Part shown: piece after piece, positions 9,515-40,301 of the stretch | How positions within the stretch are numbered: the stretch's first letter is position 1 | How the letters are laid out: every line of letters begins with the position of its first letter | Source: an uncultured Bacteroidota bacterium | GTDB taxonomy: Bacteria; Bacteroidota; Bacteroidia; Flavobacteriales; Flavobacteriaceae | Reading direction: 5' to 3' | Assembly: GCA_902597545.1 (NCBI GenBank) | Contig: CACJYD010000005.1 | Span: 5,420-69,419, forward strand | Length of the DNA stretch: 64,000 nucleotides | Notes under the pieces: generated by a model | What the model was told of the DNA's origin: nothing | Database searches by the model: none | The model's input: the letters and a program-made list of their open reading frames with translations, nothing else | Translations under genes and position numbers: made by a program

Positions 9515-9961
9515 TTAAGGTTTTAAGATTATTTTTTTTTCATCATTCAAGTCAATCAACTTAGTAAATGCAACAGAAAAATTCTCTATTCCAATGACCA
9601 CTTTATCATTAGAGTAATTAAATTCGGAAATCTTAAATTTTTTGCACTTTAGACCTTTTGAAACATAATAGTCCTGTACAAAGCCGATTCCTAAAACATA
9701 TTCACCTACTTTATAATTTTTGTTTTTAGATTCAAGAACTTCTCCTAATGTTTGAGCTTGGATTAAATCTCCTTCCTCTAATTTATTATTCTTAAAAGCA
9801 TTTAAAATGTTTTTATCTAAAAAAATGAATTTATTTTTTATTAAAAATTCATTAGAATCTAATTGAAGATCAAAATTTTCCTCAAGAAATGACCATAAAT
9901 TTTCATCGAAATAATTATTTGTTTGATAAAGTAGCCGAACAGTTCTATTATTTATTTCCAT
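9515..9961 (-). CDS. stand-alone N-terminal (GroES-like, ADH_N_2-type) domain of a CurA/PTGR1-type NADP-dependent oxidoreductase; Rossmann domain absent
   Basis: 148 aa. FLIKNKFIFLDKNILNAF...GDLIQAQTLGEVLESKNKNYKVGEYVLGIGFVQDYYVS parallels E. coli CurA VLLRTVYLSLDPYMRGRM...GGVMVGGTVSRVVESNHPDYQSGDWVLGYSGWQDYDIS. Only 30 nt separate it from the next gene. Confidence 0.55.
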   Translation of the reverse strand: MEINNRTVRLLYQTNNYFDENLWSFLEENFDLQLDSNEFLIKNKFIFLDKNILNAFKNNKLEEGDLIQAQTLGEVLESKNKNYKVGEYVLGIGFVQDYYVSKGLKCKKFKISEFNYSNDKVVIGIENFSVAFTKLIDLNDEKKIILKP

Positions 9962-10725
9962 TCAGGATTCCTTTTTTCATTAAAGGCTTTAATTCCCTCT
10001 AAAAAATCATCGGAGTCTTTCAATTTTCTTAATTCCATATTAAGTTTTTGAATTTTTTTATCATCAATATATAACTCATCATATATCTTTAAGCCTGATT
10101 TAACAGCATTTGGTGACATACTTATAATTTTATTTAGCCATTCAGATATACTTTCGTCAATATTATTATTTACAATTTTTTGAATCAAATTAAATTTATG
10201 ACAGTATTCTGCATCTAACGTTTTTCCTTTTACACACCAATCCATAACAATTCTTTCAGGCATAACTCTTAAAAGTGAATCCATTACTTGAAATGGAAAT
10301 AAACCTCTTTTAACCTCTGGTAGAGATAATTTTATTTCTTTTTTAGAAATTACATGATTAGCACATGCTACTATTAATACACCACCTGCATAAACATTTC
10401 CCTCTAAAACAACTAATTTCGGTTTATGTAATTTGTTAAAGATATCTGCTAACTGTATCGAGTTTTTAGAATCTTTAAAATCATTCAGGTCTAACCCTGA
10501 ACAAAATGTATCTCCATCAGATCTATATATGACTGCCCTAATGGAATCATTAAAATTGGCATAATCTGTACAAATTGCTAACTCCTCAATCATTTTTGAG
10601 TTTAAAGCATTTTTTTTATTTGCTCGATTTAGAGTTATAGCTAAATGATTATTTTCAATCTCAACAATCAGATGTTCAAAAGAAATTATTTCAAAATTTT
10701 TAATTTTTTTCTTATCAAAAAACAT
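9952..10725 (-). CDS. enoyl-CoA hydratase/isomerase family protein (methylglutaconyl-CoA hydratase-like)
   Basis: 257 aa crotonase-fold pattern: LNRANKKNALN, FCSGLDLN, VYAGGVLIVACANHVI. Sits directly downstream of the carboxyltransferase gene. Confidence 0.85.
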   Translation of the reverse strand: MFFDKKKIKNFEIISFEHLIVEIENNHLAITLNRANKKNALNSKMIEELAICTDYANFNDSIRAVIYRSDGDTFCSGLDLNDFKDSKNSIQLADIFNKLHKPKLVVLEGNVYAGGVLIVACANHVISKKEIKLSLPEVKRGLFPFQVMDSLLRVMPERIVMDWCVKGKTLDAEYCHKFNLIQKIVNNNIDESISEWLNKIISMSPNAVKSGLKIYDELYIDDKKIQKLNMELRKLKDSDDFLEGIKAFNEKRNPEWK

Positions 10726-10727
10726 AA

Positions 10728-12326
10728 TTACATTCTAAATGTTCCATATGATTTAGTCCCTTTAATTTTTTCTTTGTAAATAATTTCCAAACAAACTATT
10801 AAATGGTTTCTAGTTTCTCTTGGATCAATTACTCCATCATCCATAACTTCAGATGTTGTATGCCATATTGAAGCTTTTTGTTCTGCATCAATTATTAATT
10901 TCTTTTTTTCTCTGTTAAGTTGTCGTTTATCAATTTTTTTATTTTGTTTTAAGGCAGAATTTATTTTAACAATCTCCATCACTCCAGCAAGTTGTTCAGC
11001 ACCCATCACACCAGATTTAACATTTGGATAAGCAAATAAAAATCGAGGGTCAAAAGATCTTCCACACATAGCGTAGTTACCTGCTCCAAAAGAATTACCA
11101 ACAAGAAGTGTAATATGAGGGACCTCACTTCCTGCAACAGCATGTATAAGCTGTGCACCGTGATTGATAATACCTCCTTGTTCATGCCTTTTCCCTACCA
11201 TAAAACCAGTTGTATTATGCATAAATAAAATAGGTGTATTACTTTTATTTGCTAATTGAATGAATTGAGTTGCTTTCTTTGCTGATTCACTAAAAATCAC
11301 TCCATTACTCGCAATAATTGCTATTTGATGATCATTAATTTTTGACCATCCACACTTCATAGTAGCTCCATACGTACTTTTGAACTCGATAAACTCAGAA
11401 TTATCGACAAATCGCACAATCAAATCCCTAATATCAAAGGGTGTTTTTAGATTTTCAGGTATAATTCCAAGAATTTCTTCTTTATCAAATTTGGGAGGGT
11501 TCTTATCATTTATTTTATCTATAATCCTATCAGAAACATTAAATTCTACAATGTCTCTTGCAATTTTTATGGCATCATTTTCATTTTCTGCTAAAAAATC
11601 TGAAACTCCCGATAAATTACTATGCATAGTTGCACCTCCAAGTTCTTCATCACTTGAGTCCTCATTGGTTGCCATTTTAACTAGGGGAGGACCAGCCAAA
11701 AATACTTTGGCTTGATCTTTTAACATAATAGTATAATCTGACATTCCAGGAACATAAGCTCCACCTGCAGTTGAGTTTCCAAAAACAATAGAAATATTTA
11801 ATACGCCATGTTTACTTCTTTGGGACATATCTTTAAACACTGAACCATAATTATTAAACACTCTGTCCTGATCCGGAAGATTTGCACCTCCACTTTCAAC
11901 AAGATTTATAGTTGTAAGTTTATTCTCTGTAGCAATCTTACATAATCTAAGATTTTTTAGACTTGTGCCATAATCAACAACACCACCTTTTTTAGTACCG
12001 ATATTTGCATTGATAATGCATAATTTTTTTTTAACTAAACCAATTCCTGCTATTGTAGTACCACCAGGACCAAATCCATTTTCATGTCTGAGACCTGCTA
12101 AAGACATTAATTCTATAAATGGACTATCTTCATCTAGAAGCTTTGTGATCTTGTCTCTGGATAATGACTTTCCACTTTGTTTAGCTTTTTTTAATGCAAA
12201 TTCACTTCCTTGTATCTTGCTAAGCTTTAAATATGAGTTGAGTTCTTTTACAAGTTCAATCATCGCTCTTTTATTTGTCTTAAAAGAGGCACTCTTATTA
12301 TTAATTGAAGATTTAAAAACTTTCAT
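10728..12326 (-). CDS. acyl-CoA carboxylase carboxyltransferase (beta) subunit, methylcrotonyl-CoA carboxylase-like
   Basis: 532 aa. LSRDKITKLLDEDSPFIELMSLAG, GGANLPDQ and NSFGAGNYAMCGR are typical of MCCase/PCCase beta subunits. No biotin-carboxylase alpha subunit is in the window. Confidence 0.88.
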   Translation of the reverse strand: MKVFKSSINNKSASFKTNKRAMIELVKELNSYLKLSKIQGSEFALKKAKQSGKSLSRDKITKLLDEDSPFIELMSLAGLRHENGFGPGGTTIAGIGLVKKKLCIINANIGTKKGGVVDYGTSLKNLRLCKIATENKLTTINLVESGGANLPDQDRVFNNYGSVFKDMSQRSKHGVLNISIVFGNSTAGGAYVPGMSDYTIMLKDQAKVFLAGPPLVKMATNEDSSDEELGGATMHSNLSGVSDFLAENENDAIKIARDIVEFNVSDRIIDKINDKNPPKFDKEEILGIIPENLKTPFDIRDLIVRFVDNSEFIEFKSTYGATMKCGWSKINDHQIAIIASNGVIFSESAKKATQFIQLANKSNTPILFMHNTTGFMVGKRHEQGGIINHGAQLIHAVAGSEVPHITLLVGNSFGAGNYAMCGRSFDPRFLFAYPNVKSGVMGAEQLAGVMEIVKINSALKQNKKIDKRQLNREKKKLIIDAEQKASIWHTTSEVMDDGVIDPRETRNHLIVCLEIIYKEKIKGTKSYGTFRM

Positions 12327-12347
12327 TAATTAAAACCCTTTATAATA

Positions 12348-12379
12348 AAAGAAAGAGCAACTGCTGTTGCTCTTTCTTT
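12348..12379 (-). terminator. rho-independent terminator downstream of the TonB-dependent receptor
   Basis: Perfect 14-bp stem AAAGAAAGAGCAAC/GTTGCTCTTTCTTT with a 4-nt loop. On the minus strand it runs into the T-rich sequence TTTTATTAT. It lies 52 nt after the receptor stop. Confidence 0.7.
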
Positions 12380-12430
12380 AGTTTCTGTCTGTTATTCAAT
12401 TATAAATTGATAACAAATAATCTTAGAGTT

Positions 12431-14923
12431 TTAGAATTGATATTTTAAAGATGCAACAGCAGATGTTCCAATCTCAGGCATACCACTATAAACTCTATAT
12501 TTTTTACCAAGTAGGTTACTTACATTTACTCCAAGTTGAGTTTTCTTACTAAACTTGTATCCAAAATGTGCATCCCATACAGTTCTTTTTGGAACGAATC
12601 CACTATACCATCCTTGATTCGCTGTAAAAGAATTTTGATATCTCATAGATAATCCACCAGAGAAACCTTTAACTGGGTAATAACTCATACCTGCTTTAAC
12701 TCTGTGTTTAGGAGTATTTAGATTGTAAGTAGAACTTCCAGTTTCATCTTCTCCTATATCTTCTTTTTCAAAAAAGTTTTGAGATAACCATGAGTAATTC
12801 GCATAAAATGAAATATTATCAGTTGCTGCGTATTCTGTTGAAACATCTGCACCATAAAATTCTATTTCACCAAAGTTTTTGTACCCAACGTTGATAGGAC
12901 CTCTCATGAATGTTTGATCTGAGTTAACAATTCCTACAGGAGCACCAGTAAGTGCTGTATATCCAGTTGCGAATCCATTACCCATTATTTGTCCTAATAA
13001 TTGAGCAAGTAAACTTCCACCAAGCGATCTCCCAAATGTAAATCCAAGTGCATCAGCAATATCAGTTGCCGCAGAAGCTGGTAATTGAGCAAAAGGACTA
13101 ATTATTTCAAGCGCTGAAAAATTTTCTTTTGTTTGTCTGTAAACATCAACACCAACTTTCCATTTACCTAACTCAGCTTTGTATCCAATCTCGTATGTTG
13201 TTTCAGTTCCAATAGATGCAGTATCAGTCGGTTCGAGATTTGTGTTGTTACCAACAAGATCAACAGGTATAACAAAACTGTTAGCTATAATCGAACTCCA
13301 AACGGTAGGACTTTGCAAAAATGCTGGTACATTAACAAATAGTCCAACCACTGACTGAGATAATGCTGGAATCATTTGTGGAAGCAATCCTAAGTATATA
13401 GAAAATAAATCCATTCCAAGTCCTTGGTACCATACAGGATTTAAAGCTTGAATTTGATCAATTCCTGGAATTGCCCATGTTACATATGGATTGTTAAAAG
13501 TTTGTTGAGTGGCATTACCAGCTATGTGATTAGGTATACCCCAACTAAAACCTAAATGATCAGCAAACATCGTTTGAGCATTACTACTAGTAGTTGCCTG
13601 GCTAGCTGTTAATCTTATTGAGCTAGTTGGACTAGTTTTAAAAATTAAAGAAGCTTTTGGAGCAAAAGCACCTTCGTTGATGTTAGTATACTGATCGTAT
13701 CTACCTCCAAGAATTAAATTAACATTATCAGAGATTGAAGTGTTAGTTTGAAAATAAGCACCATAAACTCTCATCTCAGATCCATCATTTCTACCAAATA
13801 ATCCACCAGCAGTCATTTCTTCCGGTGTTGATGCTTGCGCATTCCAGTTAGTATTAAATGATGAAAGTTTGTGATCTAAACCAAGGCTAACATCTGTATT
13901 TCCAAGGGTTAGGTCATACTGTAATTGAGCTTGACTTTCAGTAATATCATTAGTATTCTTAAATGTATTGTTTTGAGTTGTTCTGTAGTAGTAGCCCTGA
14001 TCTTCAGCCTCAAATGGAGATTCGCTTTGACTGTAGCTATACTGTGCAGTTAAATTACCACTTTTAGCTTTTAGGTTAAAAAAGTGATTTTGGTTGTTTT
14101 CAAAAGCCTCACCATAAAACTCGCTCCATGATAAACCTTCTCTTCCATTGACACCAACTTGAGCAGTTACTTCAACATCTGAGGATGGTCTGAAGTATAG
14201 AGTTGCATCAACATTGTAGCCTGTAGCTTTTTCAAGTAATTGTCCACCAGTTTGCAATGCAGTTGTTTCATCAATTTCATACTCTCCATTTTCACTATAT
14301 CTTGCATTAATTTTATATCCAAATGTACCACTATCATTTGCTGCTGCGTGTCTAACAGAAGCTTGAAAAATATCCCAGTTACCTTTACCAAGCATTGATT
14401 CCTGGTTTGCAAGGCCACCTGATGAAATTTCCATCGATGTTCCTGGATATTTAAAAGGGTCCTTTGACATAAAGTGAACAACACCAGAATTAGTGTAGGC
14501 ACCATATGCGGATGATCCTGTACCGCGAACAACTTCAATTTTTTCAAGATCTAATCCAGAAAGATTGGTATTTGCAGCATCAAATACTTGTAGTCCAATA
14601 GTAGATATTTGTCTACCATCTAGAAGTACAACTGTTGTTGTGTTAAAAACACTTGCACCGTCCCTAAGTGTAATGTTATATCTATTTGCACCTTGTCTGT
14701 CTAATGTAAGCCCAACAACATTGTCAAGTAGCTGAGTAACATTAATAGCTGGTCTATTCTCGATTGTTTTTGCATCAATCACTGTTGTAGATGAAGGAGC
14801 ATCTACAGCTTTTTCAGCTTTTTTTGATGCAGAAAAAACCATTTCTTCTTTTTCCTGAGCATTGACAAATAAAATACCAGAAAGAATAAAAAGAAAGCTT
14901 GATAGATAGAATTTAAGTTTCAT
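12431..14923 (-). CDS. TonB-dependent outer-membrane receptor (not SusC-type)
   Basis: 830 aa. Signal peptide, plug-domain motifs (TVIDAKTIENRPAINVTQLL, IEVVRGTGSSAYG) and a C-terminal beta-barrel ending in ...SLKYQF. No adjacent SusD-like gene. Confidence 0.92.
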   Translation of the reverse strand: MKLKFYLSSFLFILSGILFVNAQEKEEMVFSASKKAEKAVDAPSSTTVIDAKTIENRPAINVTQLLDNVVGLTLDRQGANRYNITLRDGASVFNTTTVVLLDGRQISTIGLQVFDAANTNLSGLDLEKIEVVRGTGSSAYGAYTNSGVVHFMSKDPFKYPGTSMEISSGGLANQESMLGKGNWDIFQASVRHAAANDSGTFGYKINARYSENGEYEIDETTALQTGGQLLEKATGYNVDATLYFRPSSDVEVTAQVGVNGREGLSWSEFYGEAFENNQNHFFNLKAKSGNLTAQYSYSQSESPFEAEDQGYYYRTTQNNTFKNTNDITESQAQLQYDLTLGNTDVSLGLDHKLSSFNTNWNAQASTPEEMTAGGLFGRNDGSEMRVYGAYFQTNTSISDNVNLILGGRYDQYTNINEGAFAPKASLIFKTSPTSSIRLTASQATTSSNAQTMFADHLGFSWGIPNHIAGNATQQTFNNPYVTWAIPGIDQIQALNPVWYQGLGMDLFSIYLGLLPQMIPALSQSVVGLFVNVPAFLQSPTVWSSIIANSFVIPVDLVGNNTNLEPTDTASIGTETTYEIGYKAELGKWKVGVDVYRQTKENFSALEIISPFAQLPASAATDIADALGFTFGRSLGGSLLAQLLGQIMGNGFATGYTALTGAPVGIVNSDQTFMRGPINVGYKNFGEIEFYGADVSTEYAATDNISFYANYSWLSQNFFEKEDIGEDETGSSTYNLNTPKHRVKAGMSYYPVKGFSGGLSMRYQNSFTANQGWYSGFVPKRTVWDAHFGYKFSKKTQLGVNVSNLLGKKYRVYSGMPEIGTSAVASLKYQF

Positions 14924-14988
14924 AATATATAGTTTGTTAATTATTTTCTCGGTTCTAATTTAAGAATATTTTCAATTCTAAACTTATT

Positions 14989-15006
14989 TTGTGCAAATTT
15001 ACACAA
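14989..15006 (-). promoter_or_regulatory. imperfect palindrome TTGTGCAAATTTACACAA containing a -7 box (TAAATTTG on the minus strand) upstream of the TonB-dependent receptor
   Basis: TGTGc-N6-aCACA inverted repeat centred about 74 nt upstream of the receptor ATG. The minus-strand core (14994-15001) matches TAnnTTTG exactly. Confidence 0.4.
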
Positions 15007-15049
15007 TAAATTGGAAATGGTTAATCTGATATGTAGAAGAAACTAAATA

Positions 15050-16723
15050 TTATTCCCAGATAACATCATTTTCTGATTTGTACCAACTGTCATAGCTTTC
15101 AGAAAATCTTTCATCAATTTTAGCTCTCTTTATTTTTAGTGTTGGTGTTGCAAGACCATTATCAGGGAGCCATTCTTCTTTAACTATAACAATTTTTTTG
15201 ATTTTTTTATAACCTTCTAATTTTGAATTAACTTCTGCAAGTAGCTCTGAAAGTTTTTGGCTAATATTTTCTTTGTCATTTTTTGCAATTTCAGTAGGAA
15301 CTGCTAATAAAATAGGTTGATCAAGTCCTAACCCCACAATGCATAACTGCTGAAATTCTGTAACTTTTCCAAAATATGATTCTAATACGCTTGGTTCAAT
15401 ATATTTACCCTTACTAGTTTTGAAAATGTCTTTAACTCTCCCAGTTATGTATAAAAAACCATCATCATCAATATAGCCCATGTCTCCTGTATGTAACCAA
15501 CCGTCAATTAATGTCTGATTCGTCATTTTTTCGTTCTTATAGTAGGAATCAAGTAAAAAAGGACCCGACATACAAACTTCTCCTTCATCAGTAATTTTTA
15601 AATCTACACTTGGGCTACTTTTTTTGCCAACTGACCCAACACCGAGTGGTTGAAAAGGATCTAAATTTGTACAAACGCAGCAATTTTCGGTCATTCCATA
15701 ACCATTAACAATGTATACGCCAATGTTTTTATACCATTCAAGTAATGGCACAGGCATGGCAGCGGCACCAGAGACTATGACTCTAACTTTTGACCAACCC
15801 AAAGCTGCTCTCAATTTTTTCTTAATAATTGAGGAAATTATTGGGATCTTTAAAAGAATATTAAGCTTTTTCTGAGACATCTTTTCTAGTACCTTTTCTT
15901 TAAATTTTGTATAAATCCTAGGAACACCCTGAAAAGTTGTTGGCTGAACTTCTGCCAGATTTTTTCCAAAAGTATCTAGCGATTCAACAAAGTTTATGTT
16001 TCCACCATAACGAAGACATGACCATTCTATACAAATTCTTTCAAAAATATGATTGAGGGGTAGATATGAAATAAACCTGTTATCACCAAACGTACTAACA
16101 CCAAGAGGATTGTAGGCTTCATGAATTTCTTTGGTATTCATCAATGATTCATACTTAATAACAGCACCTTTTGAGTCACCAGTTGTTCCAGATGTAAAAA
16201 TTATTGTCCAAACATCATCTTTTAAAGGATAATAATTCTCAGTTTGGGGTTCAAACTTGTTAATAAAATCATCCCATTGATAACCTTCATTAACCTTTGA
16301 ATTCCCTTCGTAATGGGGAAATGCAATAATTGGAAGGTTTTCAGTATCAATGCCTTTTTTCATTTCATCCCAATTATTCTCCAATTTACCAACAAATAAA
16401 GCCTCAACGTCTCCAAAGTCGATTAGATGCTTCATCTCATTAGATTTTAGAGTTGGAAAAAACGGAACTGAAATAAATCCTGCCATCGTTATTGCAAGGT
16501 CAGCAATTATCCATTCGCTACAATTTTTTGAAACTAATCCTATATGGCTTTTTTCTTTTAGACCTAAGCTCTTTAGTCCAGTTGCTAATTTTCTTGCAGC
16601 TAAACCAGCTTCAGCCCAGGTATATTCTTTCCAATTATCTCCAATAGGTTGTCTTAAGAAAGGTTCGTTTTTTAGCCTAGATTCACATTCATAGAATGGA
16701 AAATCAAAATGTTTGTTAGTCAT
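15050..16723 (-). CDS. long-chain-fatty-acid--CoA ligase (AMP-forming acyl-CoA synthetase)
   Basis: 557 aa. AMP-binding motif IIFTSGTTGDSKGA, plus GYGMTE, WLHTGDMGYIDDDGFLYITGRVKD and TPTLKIKR. Confidence 0.9.
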   Translation of the reverse strand: MTNKHFDFPFYECESRLKNEPFLRQPIGDNWKEYTWAEAGLAARKLATGLKSLGLKEKSHIGLVSKNCSEWIIADLAITMAGFISVPFFPTLKSNEMKHLIDFGDVEALFVGKLENNWDEMKKGIDTENLPIIAFPHYEGNSKVNEGYQWDDFINKFEPQTENYYPLKDDVWTIIFTSGTTGDSKGAVIKYESLMNTKEIHEAYNPLGVSTFGDNRFISYLPLNHIFERICIEWSCLRYGGNINFVESLDTFGKNLAEVQPTTFQGVPRIYTKFKEKVLEKMSQKKLNILLKIPIISSIIKKKLRAALGWSKVRVIVSGAAAMPVPLLEWYKNIGVYIVNGYGMTENCCVCTNLDPFQPLGVGSVGKKSSPSVDLKITDEGEVCMSGPFLLDSYYKNEKMTNQTLIDGWLHTGDMGYIDDDGFLYITGRVKDIFKTSKGKYIEPSVLESYFGKVTEFQQLCIVGLGLDQPILLAVPTEIAKNDKENISQKLSELLAEVNSKLEGYKKIKKIVIVKEEWLPDNGLATPTLKIKRAKIDERFSESYDSWYKSENDVIWE

Positions 16724-16784
16724 GATTACAATTTAAAAAAAATACATTAAATGACTATATTAATATCAAATTAATTGTTTACAA

Positions 16785-17258
16785 ATGGAGAACCAAAAAT
16801 TAAAAACAGAACTTAATAATATTCAAGATTTAAAGAAATATGTTGGAAAAGAAATTGGAATTACTGATTGGTTCCAAATTACTCAAAATGATATTAATTC
16901 GTTTGCAAAATTAACACATGACGAACAATGGATTCATACTGATATTGAAAAATCAAAAAAATATTCACCTTATAAAACAACTGTAGCTCACGGTTTTTTT
17001 ATATTATCATTATCTATAAAATTTATTTATGAAACTTTTAATATTAAAAGTGTAAAAATGGGTGTTAATTACGGATTGGACAGAGTAAGATTTATGAGTC
17101 CAACTTTTTCCGGAGGGTATATTAGAGCATTTATTTCACTTGTTGATGCTGAAATTAATGCTGAGTCTGTTAAGTATAAAATGTCTATTACATTTGAACA
17201 GAAAGGTCAAGAAAAACCTGTTTGTATAGCAGAATTCTTAGCTATGGGATATGAATAA
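16785..17258 (+). CDS. MaoC-like (R)-specific enoyl-CoA hydratase / hot-dog fold dehydratase
   Basis: 157 aa. FAKLTHDEQWIHTDIEKSKKYSPYKTTVAHGF matches the MaoC dehydratase pattern (D-x4-H...AHG). Confidence 0.85.
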   Translation: MENQKLKTELNNIQDLKKYVGKEIGITDWFQITQNDINSFAKLTHDEQWIHTDIEKSKKYSPYKTTVAHGFFILSLSIKFIYETFNIKSVKMGVNYGLDRVRFMSPTFSGGYIRAFISLVDAEINAESVKYKMSITFEQKGQEKPVCIAEFLAMGYE

Positions 17259-17407
17259 TTAAGATATTATAATTTTAATACCAATTTTTTAAAAATATTC
17301 TAACATTTATTTGATGATTTTGATAATATTTTAAAAACATGAACTTCTTAATGATTTGGTAATGTACTTATTTTACAAAAAATTTAAATTTATAAAAAAC
17401 AATAATT

Positions 17408-18172
17408 ATGAAAAGACTTATTTACACCGCAGTTTTATTTTTTTTCACATCAATTTCTTTTAGTCAATATTTTATGATTTACGAATTTGAATCTGAAAAT
17501 CAAGACGATACAATGGGTATGTTCGATTTAATGATGACAGCTACCAAGGAAGTAACTGGTAAGGATTTAAACGTTGTCTCATTTCAAAAAGAACTTTCAA
17601 ACACTCATTTTGTAGTTAGGACTTACTCTAGTTTACAGGAATGGGTTGATGAAGATAATGCTTCTGAAGAGACTGGTGCAAAAATTTTTCAAAAACTTAG
17701 TGGAGTTGAAAATATTCAAGAGAAATTTCTATCGATGCAAAAAGCTACAGATTCAAAAGGAGCTAGGCTATTTGAATTGTTGCCTGAGTATAGTAACATG
17801 GCACCATATATGTCAATGTCAACAGATGAAAAAAAGGAATATAAGTATCGTAGGGTCATACTTTACGATTTAACTGATGCTGGTGAACAAGCATTTTTAG
17901 CTAATCAGAAATTTTGGATTGATGCTGATCAAAAATTAGGAGTTGATTATTTATATGCATTGATGAAGCCTGTATTTGCAACTGATGCTGATTATATGCT
18001 CGTCTTGTTAGACAAATCTAGATTTGACTATCACAAAAACTGGGAAGATAGAATGGAAAAAAGATTTTCGGACAAAGATTTTCAAGAAAATTATGAAAAA
18101 ATTGAGAAGTCTCCAGTAAGTTCTATTGTTGAAGAATGGAATTTAAATTTACTAGAGGAATATATTTATTAA
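17408..18172 (+). CDS. secreted hypothetical protein (first gene of the exported-protein operon)
   Basis: Signal peptide MKRLIYTAVLFFFTSISFSQ. The two halves each begin with a beta-strand-like YxxIYEF / YRRVILYDL segment, which suggests an internal duplication of an alpha+beta domain (by eye). Confidence 0.7.
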   Translation: MKRLIYTAVLFFFTSISFSQYFMIYEFESENQDDTMGMFDLMMTATKEVTGKDLNVVSFQKELSNTHFVVRTYSSLQEWVDEDNASEETGAKIFQKLSGVENIQEKFLSMQKATDSKGARLFELLPEYSNMAPYMSMSTDEKKEYKYRRVILYDLTDAGEQAFLANQKFWIDADQKLGVDYLYALMKPVFATDADYMLVLLDKSRFDYHKNWEDRMEKRFSDKDFQENYEKIEKSPVSSIVEEWNLNLLEEYIY

Positions 18173-18182
18173 TGTGATAATT

Positions 18183-18902
18183 ATGAAAAAAACTTTTATA
18201 CTATTAACCCTTTTAATTTTTAATTCAATTTACAGCCAGACTAAAGTCACAACTGATGAACATTGGTCTGCCTACGCAATAAGTGTACAACCACAAAATG
18301 AAGAAACTGTATTCAATATCATAGATGAGTATTTTTCTGAACATAAGTTGGATGACATTAGAGTAATGCTTTTCTCAATTTTATTTGCAGATCAATCAAT
18401 GGTTGAAGCAACCCATGAAATAGTTTTTGTTGGAAATTCAGATTCCATGAGTAAATTTTATTCTCCAATGAATTTTACAACCGAATGGAATTTATTTTCT
18501 AGTAAAATAAGTAATTTCATAGATAAGACTGTTTGGGCATTAAATGGAAGAGGTCTTGCATCAACAGGACCTGATCCAACTGAGGTTGTATATCCATATG
18601 AACAAATTCTAAATTGGGGACCGGAAAGGGATATTCAAAAATTTAGAAAGGCATGGGTAGAACTCAATAAAAAACACGAAAGAACTGACAGGTCTGCTGT
18701 AATATTTACAATTACTTCATCAGCAGATCATAAATGCGGTGTTGTATTAAGGTATCCATCTTACAAAGCTATGTTGACTTCAAATGCAGAATATGCAAAA
18801 AATAATCCATCATGGCAAAAGGATTGGCAAACATATTTAAAAGAAAATGGTGGTGGACAAATAACTAGAAACTTTTCGAGAATTTTATTAAAAGAATGGT
18901 AA
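18183..18902 (+). CDS. secreted hypothetical protein (second gene of the operon)
   Basis: The ATG at 18183 gives signal peptide MKKTFILLTLLIFNSIYSQ. The listed 18174 start is a GTG 3 codons upstream. Two-part alpha+beta-like layout similar to the upstream gene. Confidence 0.7.
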   Translation: MKKTFILLTLLIFNSIYSQTKVTTDEHWSAYAISVQPQNEETVFNIIDEYFSEHKLDDIRVMLFSILFADQSMVEATHEIVFVGNSDSMSKFYSPMNFTTEWNLFSSKISNFIDKTVWALNGRGLASTGPDPTEVVYPYEQILNWGPERDIQKFRKAWVELNKKHERTDRSAVIFTITSSADHKCGVVLRYPSYKAMLTSNAEYAKNNPSWQKDWQTYLKENGGGQITRNFSRILLKEW

Positions 18903-18919
18903 ACTAAAAATTAAAAATT

Positions 18920-19711
18920 ATGAAAAAAACATTATTACTTTTTTTCCTATTTATCTTGGGATCGTGCTCTTACGAACACCCTGAGTATGAAGCTAATAAA
19001 AAATTAGCTGAAAAATGGGTTGAAACATTTGAAACTCAAAACATGGAGTTATGGGAAGAAGTTGTTTCTGAGGATGTTGTTGATGTTGCCCCGATGTACG
19101 GAATGGGTCAAATCGATTATGCAGCATCAAAGCAAATTGCAGAATTTTATGTTAACAGCTACACTGATGTTAAATTTAACAACCCAGTATGGTTACCTGG
19201 AATCGATACTCTTACAATGAAGCCAGATGGAAGTGTTAGAGCTTACGGAGTATGGACGGGAAAAAGCAAAACGACAGGAAGAACTTTCACCTTACCGTCA
19301 TATCATAATTTCGGATTTAAAGATGGTAAAATTATATCTACTGGAGAGTACTTTGATGCAACAGGTATGGTTAACGCCGTTGGTCCAGCGCAAAGAAATG
19401 TAGTTATTTTCACTGCTAAGGTTGCAAAAAAGAATATTGATAAATTTCAAGAGTTAATGGATTCGAAAGATGGTTTGACAATAACAAGAAATGCTGATGG
19501 ATGTACTCATCTTGAGGCTTTTTATAATGAAGAAAATGAAACATACTTTATTTATGAGTATTGGGATTCATATGAGCAGTATGAAACTTACCTTGACTGG
19601 AGATTCAATATAGAGGAACCTAGTTTTGTAGATAAAGTTATTCCTTTGGTAAAAGGTGGAGAGGCAGGAATGCAAGCTAATTATAACAATAAAAACTATA
19701 ATTTCTATTAA
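18920..19711 (+). CDS. lipoprotein, NTF2/SnoaL-like domain fused to a C-terminal ABM (Dabb) domain
   Basis: Lipobox LGSC. The N-terminal half has SnoaL-like motifs (WVETFETQNMELWEEVVSEDVVDV ... FGFKDGKIISTGEYFD). The C-terminal 100 aa has the ABM pattern (VVIFTAKV...HLEAFYNEENETYFIYEYWDSYEQYETYLDWR). Confidence 0.7.
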   Translation: MKKTLLLFFLFILGSCSYEHPEYEANKKLAEKWVETFETQNMELWEEVVSEDVVDVAPMYGMGQIDYAASKQIAEFYVNSYTDVKFNNPVWLPGIDTLTMKPDGSVRAYGVWTGKSKTTGRTFTLPSYHNFGFKDGKIISTGEYFDATGMVNAVGPAQRNVVIFTAKVAKKNIDKFQELMDSKDGLTITRNADGCTHLEAFYNEENETYFIYEYWDSYEQYETYLDWRFNIEEPSFVDKVIPLVKGGEAGMQANYNNKNYNFY

Positions 19712-19713
19712 TC

Positions 19714-20214
19714 ATGAAAAACTTATACTTAATTATATTAACAGCAGTCTTTTTAAGCTGCGAAACAACCACTGAAGTAAAATATGGAGGAATGTTTACT
19801 GGAGGTCAAAACTCTTATGATCTTCAACAAGGCTCCATTGAGTATGCTTCTATTATTAAAAATGTTGTTCTGGGATATGCAGATGGTAATTTTGAGGAAA
19901 TTATTGAACACTTTTCAGATTCAGTAGTCAGGATTGAACCGGGTAACAGATTTAAAGTTGCCCCTAGCATTGAAAGATGGGAAGGCTTTAGAGAAAATTT
20001 TGACTCAATCAATAGAAATTTAACTTCTGTTATGGCCGTAAAAGTTAATGATGGGATAACTTATGTGGATGCTCTCTTTAGTCAACAAGTGTTTAGAGAT
20101 TCAGAAGTTACTAGATCAAGAAACTTTGAAAGATATTGGATCAATCACGAAACAAATAAAATTGTGAATATTGCATTTGTAAGTGAAGAATATGGAGATG
20201 ATGACGAAGATTAA
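19714..20214 (+). CDS. NTF2/SnoaL-like lipoprotein, paralog 1
   Basis: 166 aa. Lipobox FLSC followed by ETTTEV. Also LGYADGNFEEIIEHFSDSVV and a C-terminal ERYWINHETNKIVNIAF. Acidic tail DDDED. Confidence 0.75.
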   Translation: MKNLYLIILTAVFLSCETTTEVKYGGMFTGGQNSYDLQQGSIEYASIIKNVVLGYADGNFEEIIEHFSDSVVRIEPGNRFKVAPSIERWEGFRENFDSINRNLTSVMAVKVNDGITYVDALFSQQVFRDSEVTRSRNFERYWINHETNKIVNIAFVSEEYGDDDED

Positions 20215-20226
20215 ATTATAAATTAT

Positions 20227-20730
20227 ATGAAAAAATTACTATTATTATTTTTAACTATTTCTTTTATTGGTTGTGAGACTAAAACTATAGAAGTTCCTGT
20301 TAAGGGTGGTGAAATTATGCTTGGCAAAAATAAAGGAAGTAAATTTTACATTGCACCAGACGAAAATGTTGATGTTGTAAAAAAACTCTTAAAATCATGG
20401 AATAATATGGACCCTGAAGGAATGTTTGAAGTTTTAGAGGATACCATCACATGGTGGGTTGCTACTGAAAAAAAACCTATTAAAGCTGATAAAGAATTTA
20501 TTAAAGAATATTTGAAATCTTATGATTCAATAAGCCAGGTTGTTCAGGGTTACATACCTCATCAATGGGAAGGACAACAGCATGTAGTTGTTTCAGTTGC
20601 ATCTAGAGAAAAAAAATATAAAAAAGATGGAACCTTTGAAGATGATAGATTATTTGAAAGGTTTTTTGTAAGAGACGGAAAAATATTTCAAGTACAAGCG
20701 TGGAGTGCAGACTGGTACACAAATGATTAA
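20227..20730 (+). CDS. NTF2/SnoaL-like lipoprotein, paralog 2
   Basis: 167 aa. Lipobox FIGC followed by ETKTIEV. C-terminal ERFFVRDGKIFQVQAW. Confidence 0.75.
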   Translation: MKKLLLLFLTISFIGCETKTIEVPVKGGEIMLGKNKGSKFYIAPDENVDVVKKLLKSWNNMDPEGMFEVLEDTITWWVATEKKPIKADKEFIKEYLKSYDSISQVVQGYIPHQWEGQQHVVVSVASREKKYKKDGTFEDDRLFERFFVRDGKIFQVQAWSADWYTND

Positions 20731-20751
20731 TTAAAATTTAAATTATAAACT

Positions 20752-21258
20752 ATGAAGAAAATTATAATATTAATTGTTTTCACTGCTTTCATGAGTTGTG
20801 AAACAAAAACAGTTGAAGTTGTAAAACCTGCTGGTGAGTGGCTTATGGGAAATTTTGAGGGAGATAAAATGATTCCTGGTCCTGATGAAGATGCTCAAGT
20901 TGCTATGGATGTGATTATGGGCTATGCTAATAAGGACTTTGAATTAATGATGGAGAGATCTGCAGATACAGTTATGTTTTTTCCTGAAAAGGGTGGAGAG
21001 CTTGTTCAGCTTGTAAAACCATTTGATGATTTTGTAGAATCTTTGCAAGAACCTTATGATTCTATTGTAAGAACTCCGTATAATGTTTATCCTTTACGAC
21101 CAGAAAGTTCTGATAATTTTACGATTGTAACTGTGCCTTTCACGGAAGTTAGATATGCCAAAGATGGCTCAGTTGAGAAGGAAAGAATTATAGAAAGATT
21201 TTGGGTTGTTGATGGTAAGGTAGTAAGAGTCAACAAATGGGCCGCTGAATTAAATTAA
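20752..21258 (+). CDS. NTF2/SnoaL-like lipoprotein, paralog 3
   Basis: 168 aa. Lipobox FMSC followed by ETKTVEV. Also MGYANKDFELMMERSADTVMFF and ERFWVVDGKVVRVNKW. Confidence 0.78.
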   Translation: MKKIIILIVFTAFMSCETKTVEVVKPAGEWLMGNFEGDKMIPGPDEDAQVAMDVIMGYANKDFELMMERSADTVMFFPEKGGELVQLVKPFDDFVESLQEPYDSIVRTPYNVYPLRPESSDNFTIVTVPFTEVRYAKDGSVEKERIIERFWVVDGKVVRVNKWAAELN

Positions 21259-21274
21259 ATTTAAACTATAGACT

Positions 21275-21775
21275 ATGAAAAAAATACTATTATTTATTAC
21301 TTTTTTAGCTTTAATAAGCTGTGAAACAAAAACTGTAGAAGTGGAAAAGTCAGCGGGTATGACGTACTATGGTGCAAACGAGGGTAAAAAATTTCAGTTT
21401 GGTTCAGATGAAATTGCTCAATTGGCAGTAGATGCTATTTTAGCTTATGCAGATGGTAATTTTGATTTTATGAATGAGATTTCTGCAGATACCGTTATGT
21501 TTTTTGAACCCTCAATGGGTAAACCAATAGCAGTAGTTAATCCTGCTAATGAATTCTTAACTCAAATTCAGTCGCCTTATGATTCAATTACAAGGTATAT
21601 ATTCAATGCTATTCCTTTGAAGAGAGAGGGTGATAATTATGAAACCGTAACTGTTTCCTTCAGAGAAAATAGATACAAAGATGGTGAAGTTGAAAAACTA
21701 AGAGTAGTTGATAAAATATGGTTCAGAGATGGTAAGTTTTTTAGAGTTAATCAATGGAATGGAATTATTGATTAA
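21275..21775 (+). CDS. NTF2/SnoaL-like lipoprotein, paralog 4
   Basis: 166 aa. Lipobox LISC followed by ETKTVEV. Also LAYADGNFDFMNEISADTVMFF and DKIWFRDGKFFRVNQW. Roughly 40% identical to paralog 3 by eye. Confidence 0.78.
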   Translation: MKKILLFITFLALISCETKTVEVEKSAGMTYYGANEGKKFQFGSDEIAQLAVDAILAYADGNFDFMNEISADTVMFFEPSMGKPIAVVNPANEFLTQIQSPYDSITRYIFNAIPLKREGDNYETVTVSFRENRYKDGEVEKLRVVDKIWFRDGKFFRVNQWNGIID

Positions 21776-21795
21776 ATTTGAAAAAATTTACAACT

Positions 21796-22326
21796 ATGAA
21801 AAAAATATTTATAATTACATTTTTAACAATTTTCACATTTGCATGTGAATCACCTGCTCCTGCTGAAAAGGAAGCTGAGAGAGCCCCTGGATTTTTAAGA
21901 ACACCTGATGGAGATGTCGCTGCCGATGATGCCAATCCTGAAAATCTAGATTTGTGGGATAAATATATTGAAGCTCACAACAATAGAGATCTTGATGCAA
22001 TTGCGTCTATGAACATTGACTCAACTCAGCAAATGGGAAGTTTTAAAATTATTGGCCCTGACGGATCTTTAATTGAAGGAACTGATACTCATATTGAATT
22101 TCTAAAAGGTTGGTTCGAAGCTGAAAATCCTACTTGGAATACATTTTTCTCGTACACAATGAAGGTTGAAAATCAGCCTGGAGAATGGGTTATTTCAGGC
22201 GCTCAAGTAAAAAAGACTGTCGATGGAGAAGAAGTCACATCATATGATGTTATCGATGCTTATATTGAAGAAGGAAAGATAGGTGCTTTTTGGGTATACA
22301 CTAGAGCTGAAGGTTCACAAGAATAA
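21796..22326 (+). CDS. NTF2/SnoaL-like lipoprotein, divergent paralog 5
   Basis: The ATG at 21796 (the listed TTG start at 21778 is also possible) gives MKKIFIITFLTIFTFAC. Also YIEAHNNRDLDAIASM and a C-terminal DAYIEEGKIGAFWVY. Confidence 0.72.
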   Translation: MKKIFIITFLTIFTFACESPAPAEKEAERAPGFLRTPDGDVAADDANPENLDLWDKYIEAHNNRDLDAIASMNIDSTQQMGSFKIIGPDGSLIEGTDTHIEFLKGWFEAENPTWNTFFSYTMKVENQPGEWVISGAQVKKTVDGEEVTSYDVIDAYIEEGKIGAFWVYTRAEGSQE

Positions 22327-22346
22327 TTATAATTCTAAATCATTTA

Positions 22347-22376
22347 AAGGGAGTTGTTTTAACTCCCTTTTTTTTT
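22347..22376 (+). terminator. rho-independent terminator closing the eight-gene operon
   Basis: GGGAGTT (22349-22355), loop GTTTT, AACTCCC (22361-22367), followed by a run of nine T. Confidence 0.85.
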
Positions 22377-22389
22377 GTAATTTTTTAAA

Positions 22390-27473: not shown

Positions 27474-29552
27474 CTATTCAATTGGTGGACTAGCTAATAT
27501 TTGAAAGAAATCTAGTAGATCTTCAGCACCTAATGCTTCTTTCAAAGTCTGATCACTTGCAAACTGATTTGTATTTGAATTATCCTTTTTCTTATCTAAT
27601 AACTTTAAAGCACCAATGCCAGTATAAAAGTCAGAATAAAAGATATTTCCTTTATAGTATTGAGCACCCCAGAGCATCGTCGAATTAGGAACATATCCAT
27701 CAGGATGTCCTGTCCCATATTTAGCTATTTCTCTCCCTTGTTTATATAAATCACCCATTAGTTCTCCACTAATATCAACAACCCTCACTCCAGCTGTGTA
27801 CATACCAATGTAAAGTACATCATCCTCAACCCAATAATTGTGGGATCCATGACCAGGGACTTCATATCTTGCTACTTCAACTGGGTTTTTTAAATCTGTG
27901 AAGTCAATAAAGTGTAAATAACCTGCAGTCTCATTGAAGGTGTTCCCATCAACACCCTCAGGAAATATTTCATCTCCCATTATGACATAAAATTTTCCAG
28001 TCGATTTACTTTTAAAAGGAAAAGCGGCATGGTTTCCACCTGAATCATATCTGTAGTTTCCAATTTCTACTGGATTAGAAGGAGATCCCCCTGCAATACC
28101 ATTTCCAACATCAACTAAATAAACACCTTGTTTCCAGTTTGAGGAATATGCTATTCCATCTTCAATCCAAACATCATGTATGGCAGAACCTGGTTCATCA
28201 ACTTCAAAAAATCCAACTTCTTTTGGGTTTTTTGGATCTTCAATATTAATTACGTAGTATTTGGCTGGGTTCGCAAATGCGTTTAATGCATATACATGAT
28301 TTTCATATATAAAAATATTGTGAACACCACCAGTTAAATTTGTTGTATACTCAGAAATAATTTCAGCATTTGATGGATCAGTAACGTCAATCAGTATAAT
28401 TCCATTTTTCCTTTTTGAAGATGCCTCTCTTGAAATAACACATAATTTCCCATCTTTTGAAACTTTCACATCATTAACAATTCTAGCATCTACTTGAATA
28501 CTATCAATTTTTTTGATATCTGTTGGATCGGTTACATCCCAAAAATATGCAGTGCCATCAGATCCCCATGTTCCAGAGACACCATAATCTTTTCCATCTG
28601 CGCCCTCAAAAAACCAAGCGTCTGAGGTTCTTCTATCAAATACTTCCCCCAAACCGAGTTTAACTATTTCTTTTTGAATATCTCTGTCAACTGCTTTAAC
28701 TTGAATAGATGAGTTGGTATTACCGAATGATGCATTGATTACATATTCACCAGCTATATCAGCAACAAATTTACCCTTTTCTGAAATAAGTCCTGAAGCA
28801 GTTGTACTTTTATTAGTGGAAACTCCAGAAAAAGAAAATTTTGGTTCTATTCCACTCAATACATTCCCTTTTTTATCTTTAAGTTGTGCTGAAAGATTAA
28901 TGACATCCCCAGTTTTAATTACACCTTTAGAGTCAGAACTCAGATCAATTGATACAACTGGGTTATTAAAAACATTAATTTTTTTGGATACACTTTGTCC
29001 ATCAAAAGATGCACTTATTACAGAACTACCTTTTTTGATTGCCTTTAAGTTACCCAAATCATCAACTTTAATTATTGCCGGATCAGATGACTCATATTTA
29101 AAATTTAAATCAGATTTTTCTTTACCGTCAGCATATTTTGCAACCGAATTAACTTCAGCAAAATTACCTACATAAAGCTCACCATTTACATTAAAGTCTA
29201 TACTTGAAGCTTTAGGAAATTTAACTCCAACCAAAAATGTTTGACTCAATCTTTTACCACCTTCCATGCCAACACAAACTGCAACAATTTCAAATATACC
29301 TGGCTCACTTGCAACGAAAAGTCCAGTTGGATCTATTGCTGCACCTACATTGAAAGCTCCATCTTTTTGATAATAAATCAGTCGTTCACAAGTGGTTTTA
29401 TTCCCGTCTAAATCAGAAATATAAGATTCAGCTTGAAAAGTATCCCCAATATTTAATATTAAACCATCTAAATTGGATTCTATACTAAGATTTTGAGAGT
29501 GATTTAGTTGTAAGCTAAAAATAGCTATAATAATAAGTATCAATTTTTTCAT
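27474..29552 (-). CDS. secreted Big_2 (Ig-like) + LVIVD-repeat beta-propeller protein, paralog A
   Basis: 692 aa with a signal peptide. N-terminal Ig-like modules (IKTGDVINLSAQLKDKKGN...). The C-terminus has LVIVD-type pentads: IILIDVTDP, YYVINIEDP, VYLVDVGNG, LHFIDFTDL and VRVVDISGE. Confidence 0.82.
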   Translation of the reverse strand: MKKLILIIIAIFSLQLNHSQNLSIESNLDGLILNIGDTFQAESYISDLDGNKTTCERLIYYQKDGAFNVGAAIDPTGLFVASEPGIFEIVAVCVGMEGGKRLSQTFLVGVKFPKASSIDFNVNGELYVGNFAEVNSVAKYADGKEKSDLNFKYESSDPAIIKVDDLGNLKAIKKGSSVISASFDGQSVSKKINVFNNPVVSIDLSSDSKGVIKTGDVINLSAQLKDKKGNVLSGIEPKFSFSGVSTNKSTTASGLISEKGKFVADIAGEYVINASFGNTNSSIQVKAVDRDIQKEIVKLGLGEVFDRRTSDAWFFEGADGKDYGVSGTWGSDGTAYFWDVTDPTDIKKIDSIQVDARIVNDVKVSKDGKLCVISREASSKRKNGIILIDVTDPSNAEIISEYTTNLTGGVHNIFIYENHVYALNAFANPAKYYVINIEDPKNPKEVGFFEVDEPGSAIHDVWIEDGIAYSSNWKQGVYLVDVGNGIAGGSPSNPVEIGNYRYDSGGNHAAFPFKSKSTGKFYVIMGDEIFPEGVDGNTFNETAGYLHFIDFTDLKNPVEVARYEVPGHGSHNYWVEDDVLYIGMYTAGVRVVDISGELMGDLYKQGREIAKYGTGHPDGYVPNSTMLWGAQYYKGNIFYSDFYTGIGALKLLDKKKDNSNTNQFASDQTLKEALGAEDLLDFFQILASPPIE

Positions 29553-40268: not shown

Positions 40269-40301
40269 AAAAAGAAAGGTTGCCCCATGCGACAACCTTT
40301 C
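40267..40301 (-). terminator. rho-independent terminator for the porin-amt operon (minus strand)
   Basis: 9-bp stem GAAAGGTTG/CAACCTTTC (40274-40282 / 40293-40301) with a 10-nt loop. The A7 run at 40267-40273 gives a U-tract on the minus strand. Confidence 0.65.

Follow-up and report, generated by a model that had tools for sequence, protein, structure and literature searches.

A variable array of predicted exported NTF2-like and ferredoxin-like proteins in uncultured planktonic Flavobacteriales

The DNA analyzed here is a stretch of 64,000 nucleotides (hereafter the window; positions 5,420 to 69,419 of contig CACJYD010000005.1, assembly GCA_902597545.1; G+C content 30.4%) from an uncultured member of the Flavobacteriaceae, and the subject is an array of eight genes, p1 to p8, that lie one behind the other on the + strand between positions 17408 and 22326 of the window. 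The first two genes encode predicted secreted proteins, p1 (17408-18172, 254 aa) and p2 (18183-18902, 239 aa), and the other six encode predicted lipoproteins: p3 (18920-19711), p4 (19714-20214, 166 aa), p5 (20227-20730, 167 aa), p6 (20752-21258, 168 aa), p7 (21275-21775, 166 aa) and p8 (21796-22326, 176 aa). The open reading frames (ORFs) occupy the positions at which the initial annotation had placed them, and consecutive genes are separated by 10, 17, 2, 12, 21, 16 and 20 nt. For p2 and p8 the ATG codons at 18183 and 21796 were taken as starts, as proper signal peptides result from them; the mechanical ORF list had begun these genes at GTG 18174 and TTG 21778. The arrangement is not a chance one, because p4 to p7 are true paralogs and because about 30 independent loci contain such an array.

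The array ends at an intrinsic terminator (22346-22379, + strand) that consists of an 11-bp stem (22346-22370) with a 3-nt loop and a U9 tail. The fold energy of this hairpin is -13.2 kcal/mol (z = -3.9), and it is the only terminator-like site between 16 and 24 kb in the window. The ORF coordinates and the hairpin fold bear out the initial annotation's picture of eight same-strand genes, 2-21 nt apart, closed by a terminator and with nothing interleaved. Its further claim that no other hairpin plus T-tract in the window was stronger did not hold, since a - strand hairpin at about 40274-40301, with an 11-bp GC-rich stem and located 3′ of an ammonium transporter gene (40378-41610), is stronger at -17 kcal/mol. 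Given the tight spacing and the single terminator, p1 to p8 are probably co-transcribed. The only sizeable non-coding gap 5′ of the array is the AT-rich spacer of 149 nt between the MaoC gene and p1 (17259-17407, + strand), which is presumed to be the promoter region. This spacer contains no exact copy of the Bacteroidetes -7 motif TAnnTTTG, so that the promoter could not be pinpointed there. An exact copy, TAAATTTG, is present at 21773-21780, 16 nt 5′ of the p8 start codon, and might be a promoter of p8's own, a weak candidate given that seven such motifs were present in 5.7 kb where about 4-5 are expected by chance.

Signal peptides and lipoboxes were assigned by sequence rule and pattern. 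By this rule all eight products carry a signal peptide and the last six a lipobox Cys, as had been annotated. The signals of p1 and p2 end in SFSQ before Y and in IYSQ before T, respectively, which are signal-peptidase-I sites that expose a Gln, as described by the Bacteroidetes 'Q-rule' (PMC5837995). The lipoboxes, with their invariant Cys, are LGSC (p3), FLSC (p4), FIGC (p5), FMSC (p6), LISC (p7) and TFAC (p8). The AlphaFold2 (AF2) models of p1 and p6 both begin with a low-confidence N-terminal helix that is followed by a folded domain, which fits a cleaved or tethered signal. Pfam showed neither a C-terminal domain of the type IX secretion system nor any other extra domain in p1 to p8.

The mature lipoproteins begin with C-E-T-K-T-[VI]-E-V, C-E-T-T-T-E-V, C-S-Y-E-H-P-E or C-E-S-P-A-P-A-E. 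Within the p5-p7 family, no stretch is more conserved than the first of these. Its synonymous codons differ while the peptide is kept, which indicates selection on the peptide and rules out gene conversion as the source of the conserved 5′ ends; the stretch is probably a sorting or tether signal. The surface-export signals described for Bacteroidetes lipoproteins stand just after Cys+1 and read C-X-K-(D/E)2, SDDDD or SDDFE (PMC5080379). The canonical K-(D/E)2, SDDDD and SDDFE signals are absent from the mature N-termini found here, in which no two adjacent acidic residues occur at +3 to +5, and a clade-specific variant of the export signal is conceivable. In a distant subgroup of p6-like lipoproteins (loci L016-L018, L021 and L022) a second Cys occurs 6-7 residues past the lipidated one (C-A-N-Q-N-Q-E-C-E-T...), which looks like an extra short segment placed ahead of the usual C-E-T start.

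In terms of folds, SnoaL_2 exceeded its Pfam cut-off in only one of the eight products, p3. The SnoaL_2 model (PF12680) matched aa 31-139 of p3 with 28.9 bits against a cut-off of 27, and the ABM model (PF03992) matched aa 161-225 with 24.2 bits against 23.1, a small margin. p3 is also the cassette most widely shared across the neighbourhoods described below, and one source labels a member of its cluster 'quinol monooxygenase YgiN/ketosteroid isomerase-like protein', the only informative name among all homologs. Sub-threshold SnoaL_2 matches were obtained for p5 (E 0.0034), p7 (E 0.013) and p8, and none for p4 and p6.

The lipoproteins p4 to p7 form one paralogous family, family B, in which p6 and p7 are 51% identical (E 5e-54), p5 is 34% identical to p6 and p7 (E 1e-29), and p4 is 30-31% identical to the same two proteins (E 1e-16). 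The hidden Markov model (HMM) of family B found nothing in the PDB, and the SnoaL_2 matches given by 6 of its 30 members were all sub-threshold. Because the family B profiles were insignificant against both the PDB and Pfam, the fold became visible only through structure prediction. The AF2 model of p6, based on a 30-sequence alignment (A2) that includes p4, had a pLDDT (predicted local distance difference test) score of 88.8. Foldseek matched this model to the limonene-1,2-epoxide hydrolase (LEH) 5aii, the ketosteroid isomerase (KSI)-like 3d9r, SnoaL2/AclR and the Mycobacterium tuberculosis LEH-like protein 2bng at target template-modelling (TM) scores of 0.72-0.76, with NsrQ also among the best matches. 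The model confidently assigns p6 to the NTF2-like cone, in which three helices pack on a curved six-stranded sheet, here predicted to sit on a tether of about 25 residues. The assignment extends to p4, p5 and p7 through their paralogy with p6.

For p8, weak profile evidence suggests an NTF2-like fold as well: SnoaL_3 matched with E 0.048, the SnoaL-like C-terminal region of TIGR02960 with E 4.9e-4, and hhalign related p8 to family B with 83% probability. A p8-like paralog in locus L005 scored 23.5 bits with SnoaL_2 and 21.1 bits with SnoaL_3. Among the other lipoprotein families, hhalign related the g4 product of locus L001 to the N-terminal domain of p3 with 94% probability, and all of the approximately 165-aa array lipoproteins of the relatives matched SnoaL-type models (SnoaL_2 23.5-29.9 bits). 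Of the folds that had been proposed at the outset, NTF2/SnoaL and ABM are therefore upheld for p3, by Pfam, and NTF2/SnoaL for p4 to p7, by the p6 model; for p8 the indications of an NTF2-like fold are weak.

Family B paralogs that are 28-50% identical have in common the invariant polar residues D72, D103, S104, R145 and K156 and the near-invariant Y102, E132 and R134. In the beta5-beta6 hairpin, V126, V128, F130, E132 and R145 are invariant on one face, and the orthogroup-specific positions 125, 127, 129, 144 and 150 lie on the other. The register of this hairpin relative to LEH (sequence verified as 1nww) was set by hand from a shared (D/E)-G-K-(I/V) turn and the glycine turn that precedes it. 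In the hand-set register the pocket would be lined by the variable face, and the invariant residues would lie on the convex side, which is the usual dimer interface of NTF2 proteins. On this reading, family B may represent a common scaffold and interface with diversified pockets.

The head gene product, p1, has no Pfam or NCBIfam match. Its AF2 model (pLDDT 84, predicted TM score 0.78) is a single chain in which the order beta-alpha-beta-beta-alpha-beta occurs twice. The best Foldseek match was 2pgc (E 6e-10, TM 0.55/0.65), followed by 3mcs, 3f44 and chlorite dismutase/HemQ, the Cld/HemQ structures having E values of 2e-7 to 2e-5 at TM scores of just 0.41-0.48. The model thus shows the two-domain ferredoxin-like fold, and p1 is predicted to be a fused double ferredoxin-like barrel of the dimeric alpha+beta type, in keeping with the earlier description of the products as exported small alpha+beta-barrel proteins. 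H209 is the sole invariant His among close p1 homologs and the candidate proximal ligand of a Cld/HemQ-type heme protein. It is replaced by Y, M, F or I in remote members, which makes such heme chemistry unlikely, and similarity to these proteins at the sequence level is absent. An exhaustive HMMER search of 1.84 billion representatives placed the p1 family in 32 clusters, and its remote relatives (31-33% identity) are solitary genes. PDB sequence searches with the p1 and p2 family profiles and with p3 and p8 gave nothing meaningful. One match of the p1 profile (alignment A1, residues 37-115) to residues 112-189 of a 'Major Capsid Protein' (PDB 30ys/30yt; E 1.7e-4, 24.5 bits, 79 residues) is probably a chance likeness between helical segments.

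The second secreted protein, p2, had no Pfam match above noise and no PDB match. It is related only to the g2 product of L001 (hhalign 99.4%), and no hhalign profile comparison connects it to p1 or to ABM; near-identical copies are present on many ocean metagenome contigs. Across the arrays there are at least six secreted families of about 230-262 aa that lack a Pfam match, namely p1, p2 with g2, g3, g5, L002_g1 and L012_3725. Attempts to unite the approximately 250-aa secreted families by hhalign, including deeper alignments and half-domains, related only p2 and L001_g2, so that these proteins (class A) are a class of size and signal with no demonstrated superfamily. Locus L012 has an isolated paralog of the secreted g3 family (40% identity) at 16549-17307, on the opposite strand, and also a KatG-like catalase-peroxidase gene (14305-16449; assigned from the N-terminus only) about 4 kb from its 10-gene array.

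About 30 related loci were mapped. The genome scan used the N-terminal pattern of family B, so that retrieval was biased, and loci retrieved independently through the p1 family showed the same pattern. Homologs were found only in uncultured Flavobacteriales, in ocean metagenomes, single-cell genomes and metagenome-assembled genomes (MAGs), including the GORG 'AG-' single-cell genomes, MED-G14/G65 and Ca. Eutrophosalina marina. Single cassette variants are present on hundreds of metagenome contigs, and the carriers are abundant, uncultured Flavobacteriales of the surface ocean. The number of genes per array ranges from 3 to at least 11. At the chromosomal site that the window represents, between MaoC and GH3/GH18, at least nine different architectures were observed. 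In addition to the p1 p2 p3 p4 p5 p6 p7 p8 of the window, the orders include p1 g2 g3 g4 g5 p5 p4 p2 p3 p6 p8 (L001), p1 p4 p7' p5 p7 p6' p8 (L011), p3 p6' p5 p6 p7 p8 (L007) and p1 p5 p6 p8' p8'' (L037). At this site the array invariably ends with a p8-type gene and in most cases begins with p1. Between 0 and 6 of the approximately 250-aa secreted cassettes occur per array and their number varies independently of the lipoproteins, from which it is unlikely that the products form a fixed complex or a linear pathway.

Several irregular genes were noted in these loci. Split or truncated cassettes, namely a p3 in two pieces, a p6-like fragment of 111 aa and p5 fragments of 106 aa, occur in L020 (9205-10861), L006 (798-1118) and L009 (9670-9990); they reflect either decay or assembly errors, L020 being a polished long-read MAG. 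An extra 602-aa cytoplasmic gene stands between MaoC and p1 in L037 (1519-3327) and L033 (756-2564), which indicates that gene content changes at the left boundary of the array as well. In L001, a gene at 527-1456, between the orf214 homolog and the NMO gene, encodes a 309-aa secreted protein that has no counterpart in the window. Its faint matches to SnoaL_2/DUF4440 hint at a further exported NTF2-like gene outside the array.

The array and its flanks have different histories. Compared with L011, the flanks are 86-96% identical in DNA sequence and the array 67-77%, with p2 and p3 missing and p6 and p7 swapped. For L001, which is more distant, identity is 74-79% in the flanks, 91% in p5 and 84% in p2-p3; p5 and its L001 counterpart are 95% identical. 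By the Nei-Gojobori method, the ratio of nonsynonymous to synonymous substitutions (dN/dS) was 0.04-0.28 for every cassette and 0.04-0.23 for the flanks, indicating purifying selection. The synonymous distance (dS) to L011 was 1.0-2.5 in the array and 0.13-0.74 in the flanks, and that to L001 was 0.26 for p5 and 1.0-2.0 for the flanks. Because dS is decoupled from the flanks and selection is purifying, the cassettes are functional genes exchanged and replaced between lineages rather than fast-evolving ones. A defence, phage or mobile-element origin was rejected: PADLOC gave no match, PHROGs gave two matches at noise level only, and viral contigs contained no relatives. The only repeats at the array are paralog similarities at the 5′ ends of genes, with no bounding repeats or integron-like sites and no adjacent recombinase or integrase.

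This pattern bears on the possibility that the lipoproteins are surface-exposed structural or adhesive proteins, varied under pressure from phages or grazers as receptors or decoys, with the fold being incidental. The array does behave as flexible genomic islands do, and the planktonic lineage that carries it is abundant; the conservation of C-E-T-K-T-[VI]-E-V as a peptide rather than as codons would suit a sorting signal. The dN/dS values, however, are those of plain purifying and not diversifying selection, the canonical surface-export signals are absent, p1 and p2 are predicted to be soluble rather than anchored, and no link to PHROGs or viral contigs was found. We regard such a surface role as highly improbable.

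A hypervariable array between conserved flanks, with exchange and with many unrelated small exported families side by side, would also be expected of a bank of immunity or inhibitor proteins that act against the envelope-directed toxins or lytic enzymes of competitors, like the orphan-immunity (acquired interbacterial defence) clusters of Bacteroidales. Non-catalytic NTF2-like domains are known as immunity proteins of polymorphic toxins (PMC3924330), and the invariant convex face of family B could bind a protein. However, neither Imm-NTF2 nor any other Pfam immunity model was matched, and no toxin-like gene, Rhs, type VI secretion or recombinase gene was found beside the array in any of the about 30 loci. 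The sole entry from a toxin family, Tox-REase-5 on a secreted protein of one relative, was below threshold (E 0.046, 14.7 bits against a cut-off of 25). Mobile-element repeats are likewise missing, and the folds belong to only two classes, although such a bank should be heterogeneous. The hosts, moreover, are apparently small-genome plankton (30% GC; two related contigs of 1.48-1.51 Mb), in which contact-dependent antagonism would not be expected. Taken together, an immunity function seems quite improbable, if less so than a surface role.

The genes that adjoin the array in the window were considered as possible partners. On its left, an operon-like run on the - strand (9952-16723) comprises an AMP-dependent acyl-CoA ligase, a TonB-dependent receptor (12431-14923, - strand), a carboxyltransferase and an enoyl-CoA hydratase, with an NMO-family gene (8507-9484) nearby and MaoC divergent. 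The run is conserved in L001, L007, L011, L031 and L039. The position of the TonB receptor within the acyl-CoA operon suggests the import of a bulky carboxylic acid into a Liu/Atu-like pathway, and no SusD partner is present beside the receptor, as a SusC/SusD-type polysaccharide utilisation locus would have. The initial annotation had tied the array to the TonB receptor, the acyl-CoA ligase and MaoC, and the array could on this basis be an accessory to hydrophobic-acid uptake and breakdown, or to the downstream GH3/GH18 genes. It adjoins the left-flank genes in the window and the five loci named above and the GH3/GH18 genes in L008 and L036, and arrays elsewhere repeatedly have sulfatase or GH18-like genes at most a few kb away.

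The survey of neighbourhoods argues against this association. The array occupies at least five unrelated contexts, namely the window site and at least four that lack every flanking gene of the window (L002/L014; L009/L010/L019; L012; L016-L018/L021). Since the same cassette families occur there, the TonB/acyl-CoA link represents synteny among close relatives only. In addition, the acyl-CoA genes lie on the opposite strand, GH3 is missing in L035 and L037, the 602-aa gene parts MaoC from p1 in L037 and L033, and the content of the array shifts while the flanks stay 86-96% identical. Functional coupling of the array to the TonB/acyl-CoA genes was rejected on these comparative grounds, and an accessory role is the least probable of the explanations considered here.

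Our preferred interpretation, to which we assign a probability of about 45%, is that the array is a recombining toolkit of independent envelope modules that bind small hydrophobic molecules or convert them without a cofactor. Each gene would encode a stand-alone exported pocket protein that needs no cofactor, of one of two kinds. The first kind would be soluble periplasmic proteins of about 250 aa, such as the p1 barrel, and the second lipoproteins (about 165-260 aa) whose NTF2-like cone, fused to ABM in the case of p3, hangs from the lipidated Cys. Each cassette may bind or convert a different, mostly hydrophobic, small molecule in the envelope, for scavenging or for neutralisation, and the set of cassettes would be reshuffled by homologous recombination with other lineages, giving a variable toolkit rather than a fixed pathway or complex. 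The interpretation is supported by the close packing of the genes ahead of one terminator, the export signals, the purifying selection, the variable content and solitary p1 relatives, the exchange of cassettes and the split of the beta5-beta6 hairpin into an invariant and a variable face. It is further supported by the folds, as the NTF2-like cone (p6), SnoaL_2 plus ABM (p3) and the double ferredoxin-like barrel (p1) are all known for small-molecule pockets. For exported NTF2 domains a ligand-binding role has been hypothesized, with non-catalytic binding favoured, and the enzymatic NTF2 domains are mostly intracellular (PMC3924330).

Several observations weigh against the toolkit interpretation. 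A hypervariable island of this kind would be just as compatible with protein-protein roles. Since the array is not accompanied by any transporter or regulator, there is no evident route by which scavenged molecules would enter the cell, and the canonical surface-export signals are, as described above, absent. The assignment of the variable face to the pocket is hand-made: hhalign of LEH against the family B profile aligned only the N-terminal helices, at 0.9% probability, and yielded no usable alignment. A shift of the register by one residue would place E132 on Asp101 of LEH and the conserved E132-R145 pair in the pocket, pointing to an enzyme with shared chemistry.

This last point leads to a related alternative, in which the cassettes would encode periplasmic enzymes that need no cofactor, have a catalytic core in common and detoxify or pre-process reactive metabolites derived from phytoplankton. 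Proteins of the NTF2 type might act as epoxide hydrolases, isomerases or dehydrohalogenases, and those of the ferredoxin-like type as oxygenases, isomerases or mutarotases. This alternative overlaps with the toolkit interpretation and differs from it only in requiring catalysis. The best structural matches of p6 (LEH, KSI, SnoaL2/AclR and NsrQ) are enzymes, the ABM domain of p3 passes Pfam, a member of the p3 cluster bears the YgiN/ketosteroid isomerase-like label, many polar residues are invariant across family B, and in the shifted register E132-R145 would resemble the catalytic Asp-Arg-Asp triad of LEH. Chemistry that needs no cofactor also fits a compartment that lacks ATP and NAD(P)H. In the hand-set register, however, hydrophobic residues of p6 stand at the positions of Tyr53 and Asn55, the water-positioning pair of LEH, and P129/T131 at those of Arg99 and Asp101, and no tool alignment backs a catalytic match. 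D72 and the P-Y-D-S stretch resemble what we take to be common structural motifs of SnoaL-type proteins, and the replacement of H209 in p1 and the mostly intracellular location of enzymatic NTF2 domains also count against it. One of the functions that the initial annotation had named for these folds, that of classical cofactor-independent cyclases or oxygenases, is not borne out, as no catalytic residue set emerged and the literature on exported NTF2 domains favours non-catalytic ligand binding. We consider this enzyme-only alternative rather unlikely, though more probable than the other rivals.

A more specific version of the toolkit interpretation would make the array a recombining bank of cofactor-free pocket proteins, from at least seven families without a database model, that captures or neutralises a changing set of small molecules derived from phytoplankton. 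Swapping of cassettes would then tune specificity, as transporter and glycan islands do for nutrients and phages. In this detailed form the proposal is unlikely, and we put it forward as a speculation.

Exported or lipid-anchored NTF2-like domains have been described before. The Pfam families DUF3828, DUF3887 and DUF4878 (Eberhardt et al. 2013) are common in Bacteroidetes, with no function assigned and ligand binding proposed (PMC3924330). The array resembles them in having small NTF2-like cones behind signal peptides or lipoboxes. Unlike these families, however, the cassettes do not match the corresponding models, the sole trace being DUF4878 with E 0.03 on one secreted protein of about 250 aa. 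They fall on the SnoaL_2/SnoaL_3 side of the clan and occur as multi-paralog, recombining arrays together with ferredoxin-like barrels, an arrangement that is not found in PMC3924330. With SnoaL, LEH and KSI the array shares the fold (p6 by structure, p3 by SnoaL_2) at an identity of just 10-19%; those proteins are cytoplasmic enzymes, whereas the array members are predicted exported lipoproteins without conserved partner genes for biosynthesis or catabolism.

p1 shares its fused two-domain topology with 2pgc (a marine metagenome protein without an assigned function), 3mcs and 3f44 ('putative monooxygenases') and Cld/HemQ/DyP. The resemblance is limited to the fold, with TM scores of 0.45-0.65, an identity of 8-13% and no relation at the sequence level, H209 is not conserved, and none of the nearest structures has been given a function. 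A periplasmic location is also known for some Cld and DyP/EfeB proteins. The C-terminal domain of p3 belongs, by its Pfam match, with the ABM-type dimeric alpha+beta barrels (ActVA-Orf6, YgiN, IsdG and the L-rhamnose mutarotase RhaM), which carry out cofactor-free chemistry on small molecules, and p3 differs from these as a lipoprotein fusion with SnoaL_2. Marine flexible genomic islands and the orphan-immunity arrays of Bacteroidales are similar in their conserved flanks, variable content and exchange across lineages. In contrast to them, the array has no glycosyltransferase or O-antigen content, toxins, recombinase or bounding repeats, and it is built from only two classes of small-barrel fold. 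No published description of such an array was found in the literature. What is undescribed is the recombining array with its two fold classes, along with most of the families; the folds themselves, and the concept of exported barrels that bind ligands, were already known.

About 5 kb of DNA is kept here under purifying selection in apparently small genomes, yet all of the genes are annotated as hypothetical. If the products are modules for ligand binding or cofactor-free processing, they would represent a route by which planktonic Bacteroidota reach small organic molecules outside the polysaccharide (SusC/D) route, and the array would provide a defined set of small, soluble and easily expressed proteins with which those molecules could be fished out. 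Several protein families are newly defined by the analysis, among them an exported barrel of the single-chain double-ferredoxin type, and the array illustrates cleanly how cassettes can be exchanged in the absence of mobile-element machinery.

Elsewhere in the window, two adjacent genes on the - strand (27474-29552 and 29577-31619) encode secreted paralogs of 692 and 680 aa. These have no Pfam match, cross-match each other at about 70-73% DNA identity, and are conserved at 93-98% amino acid identity in the relatives.

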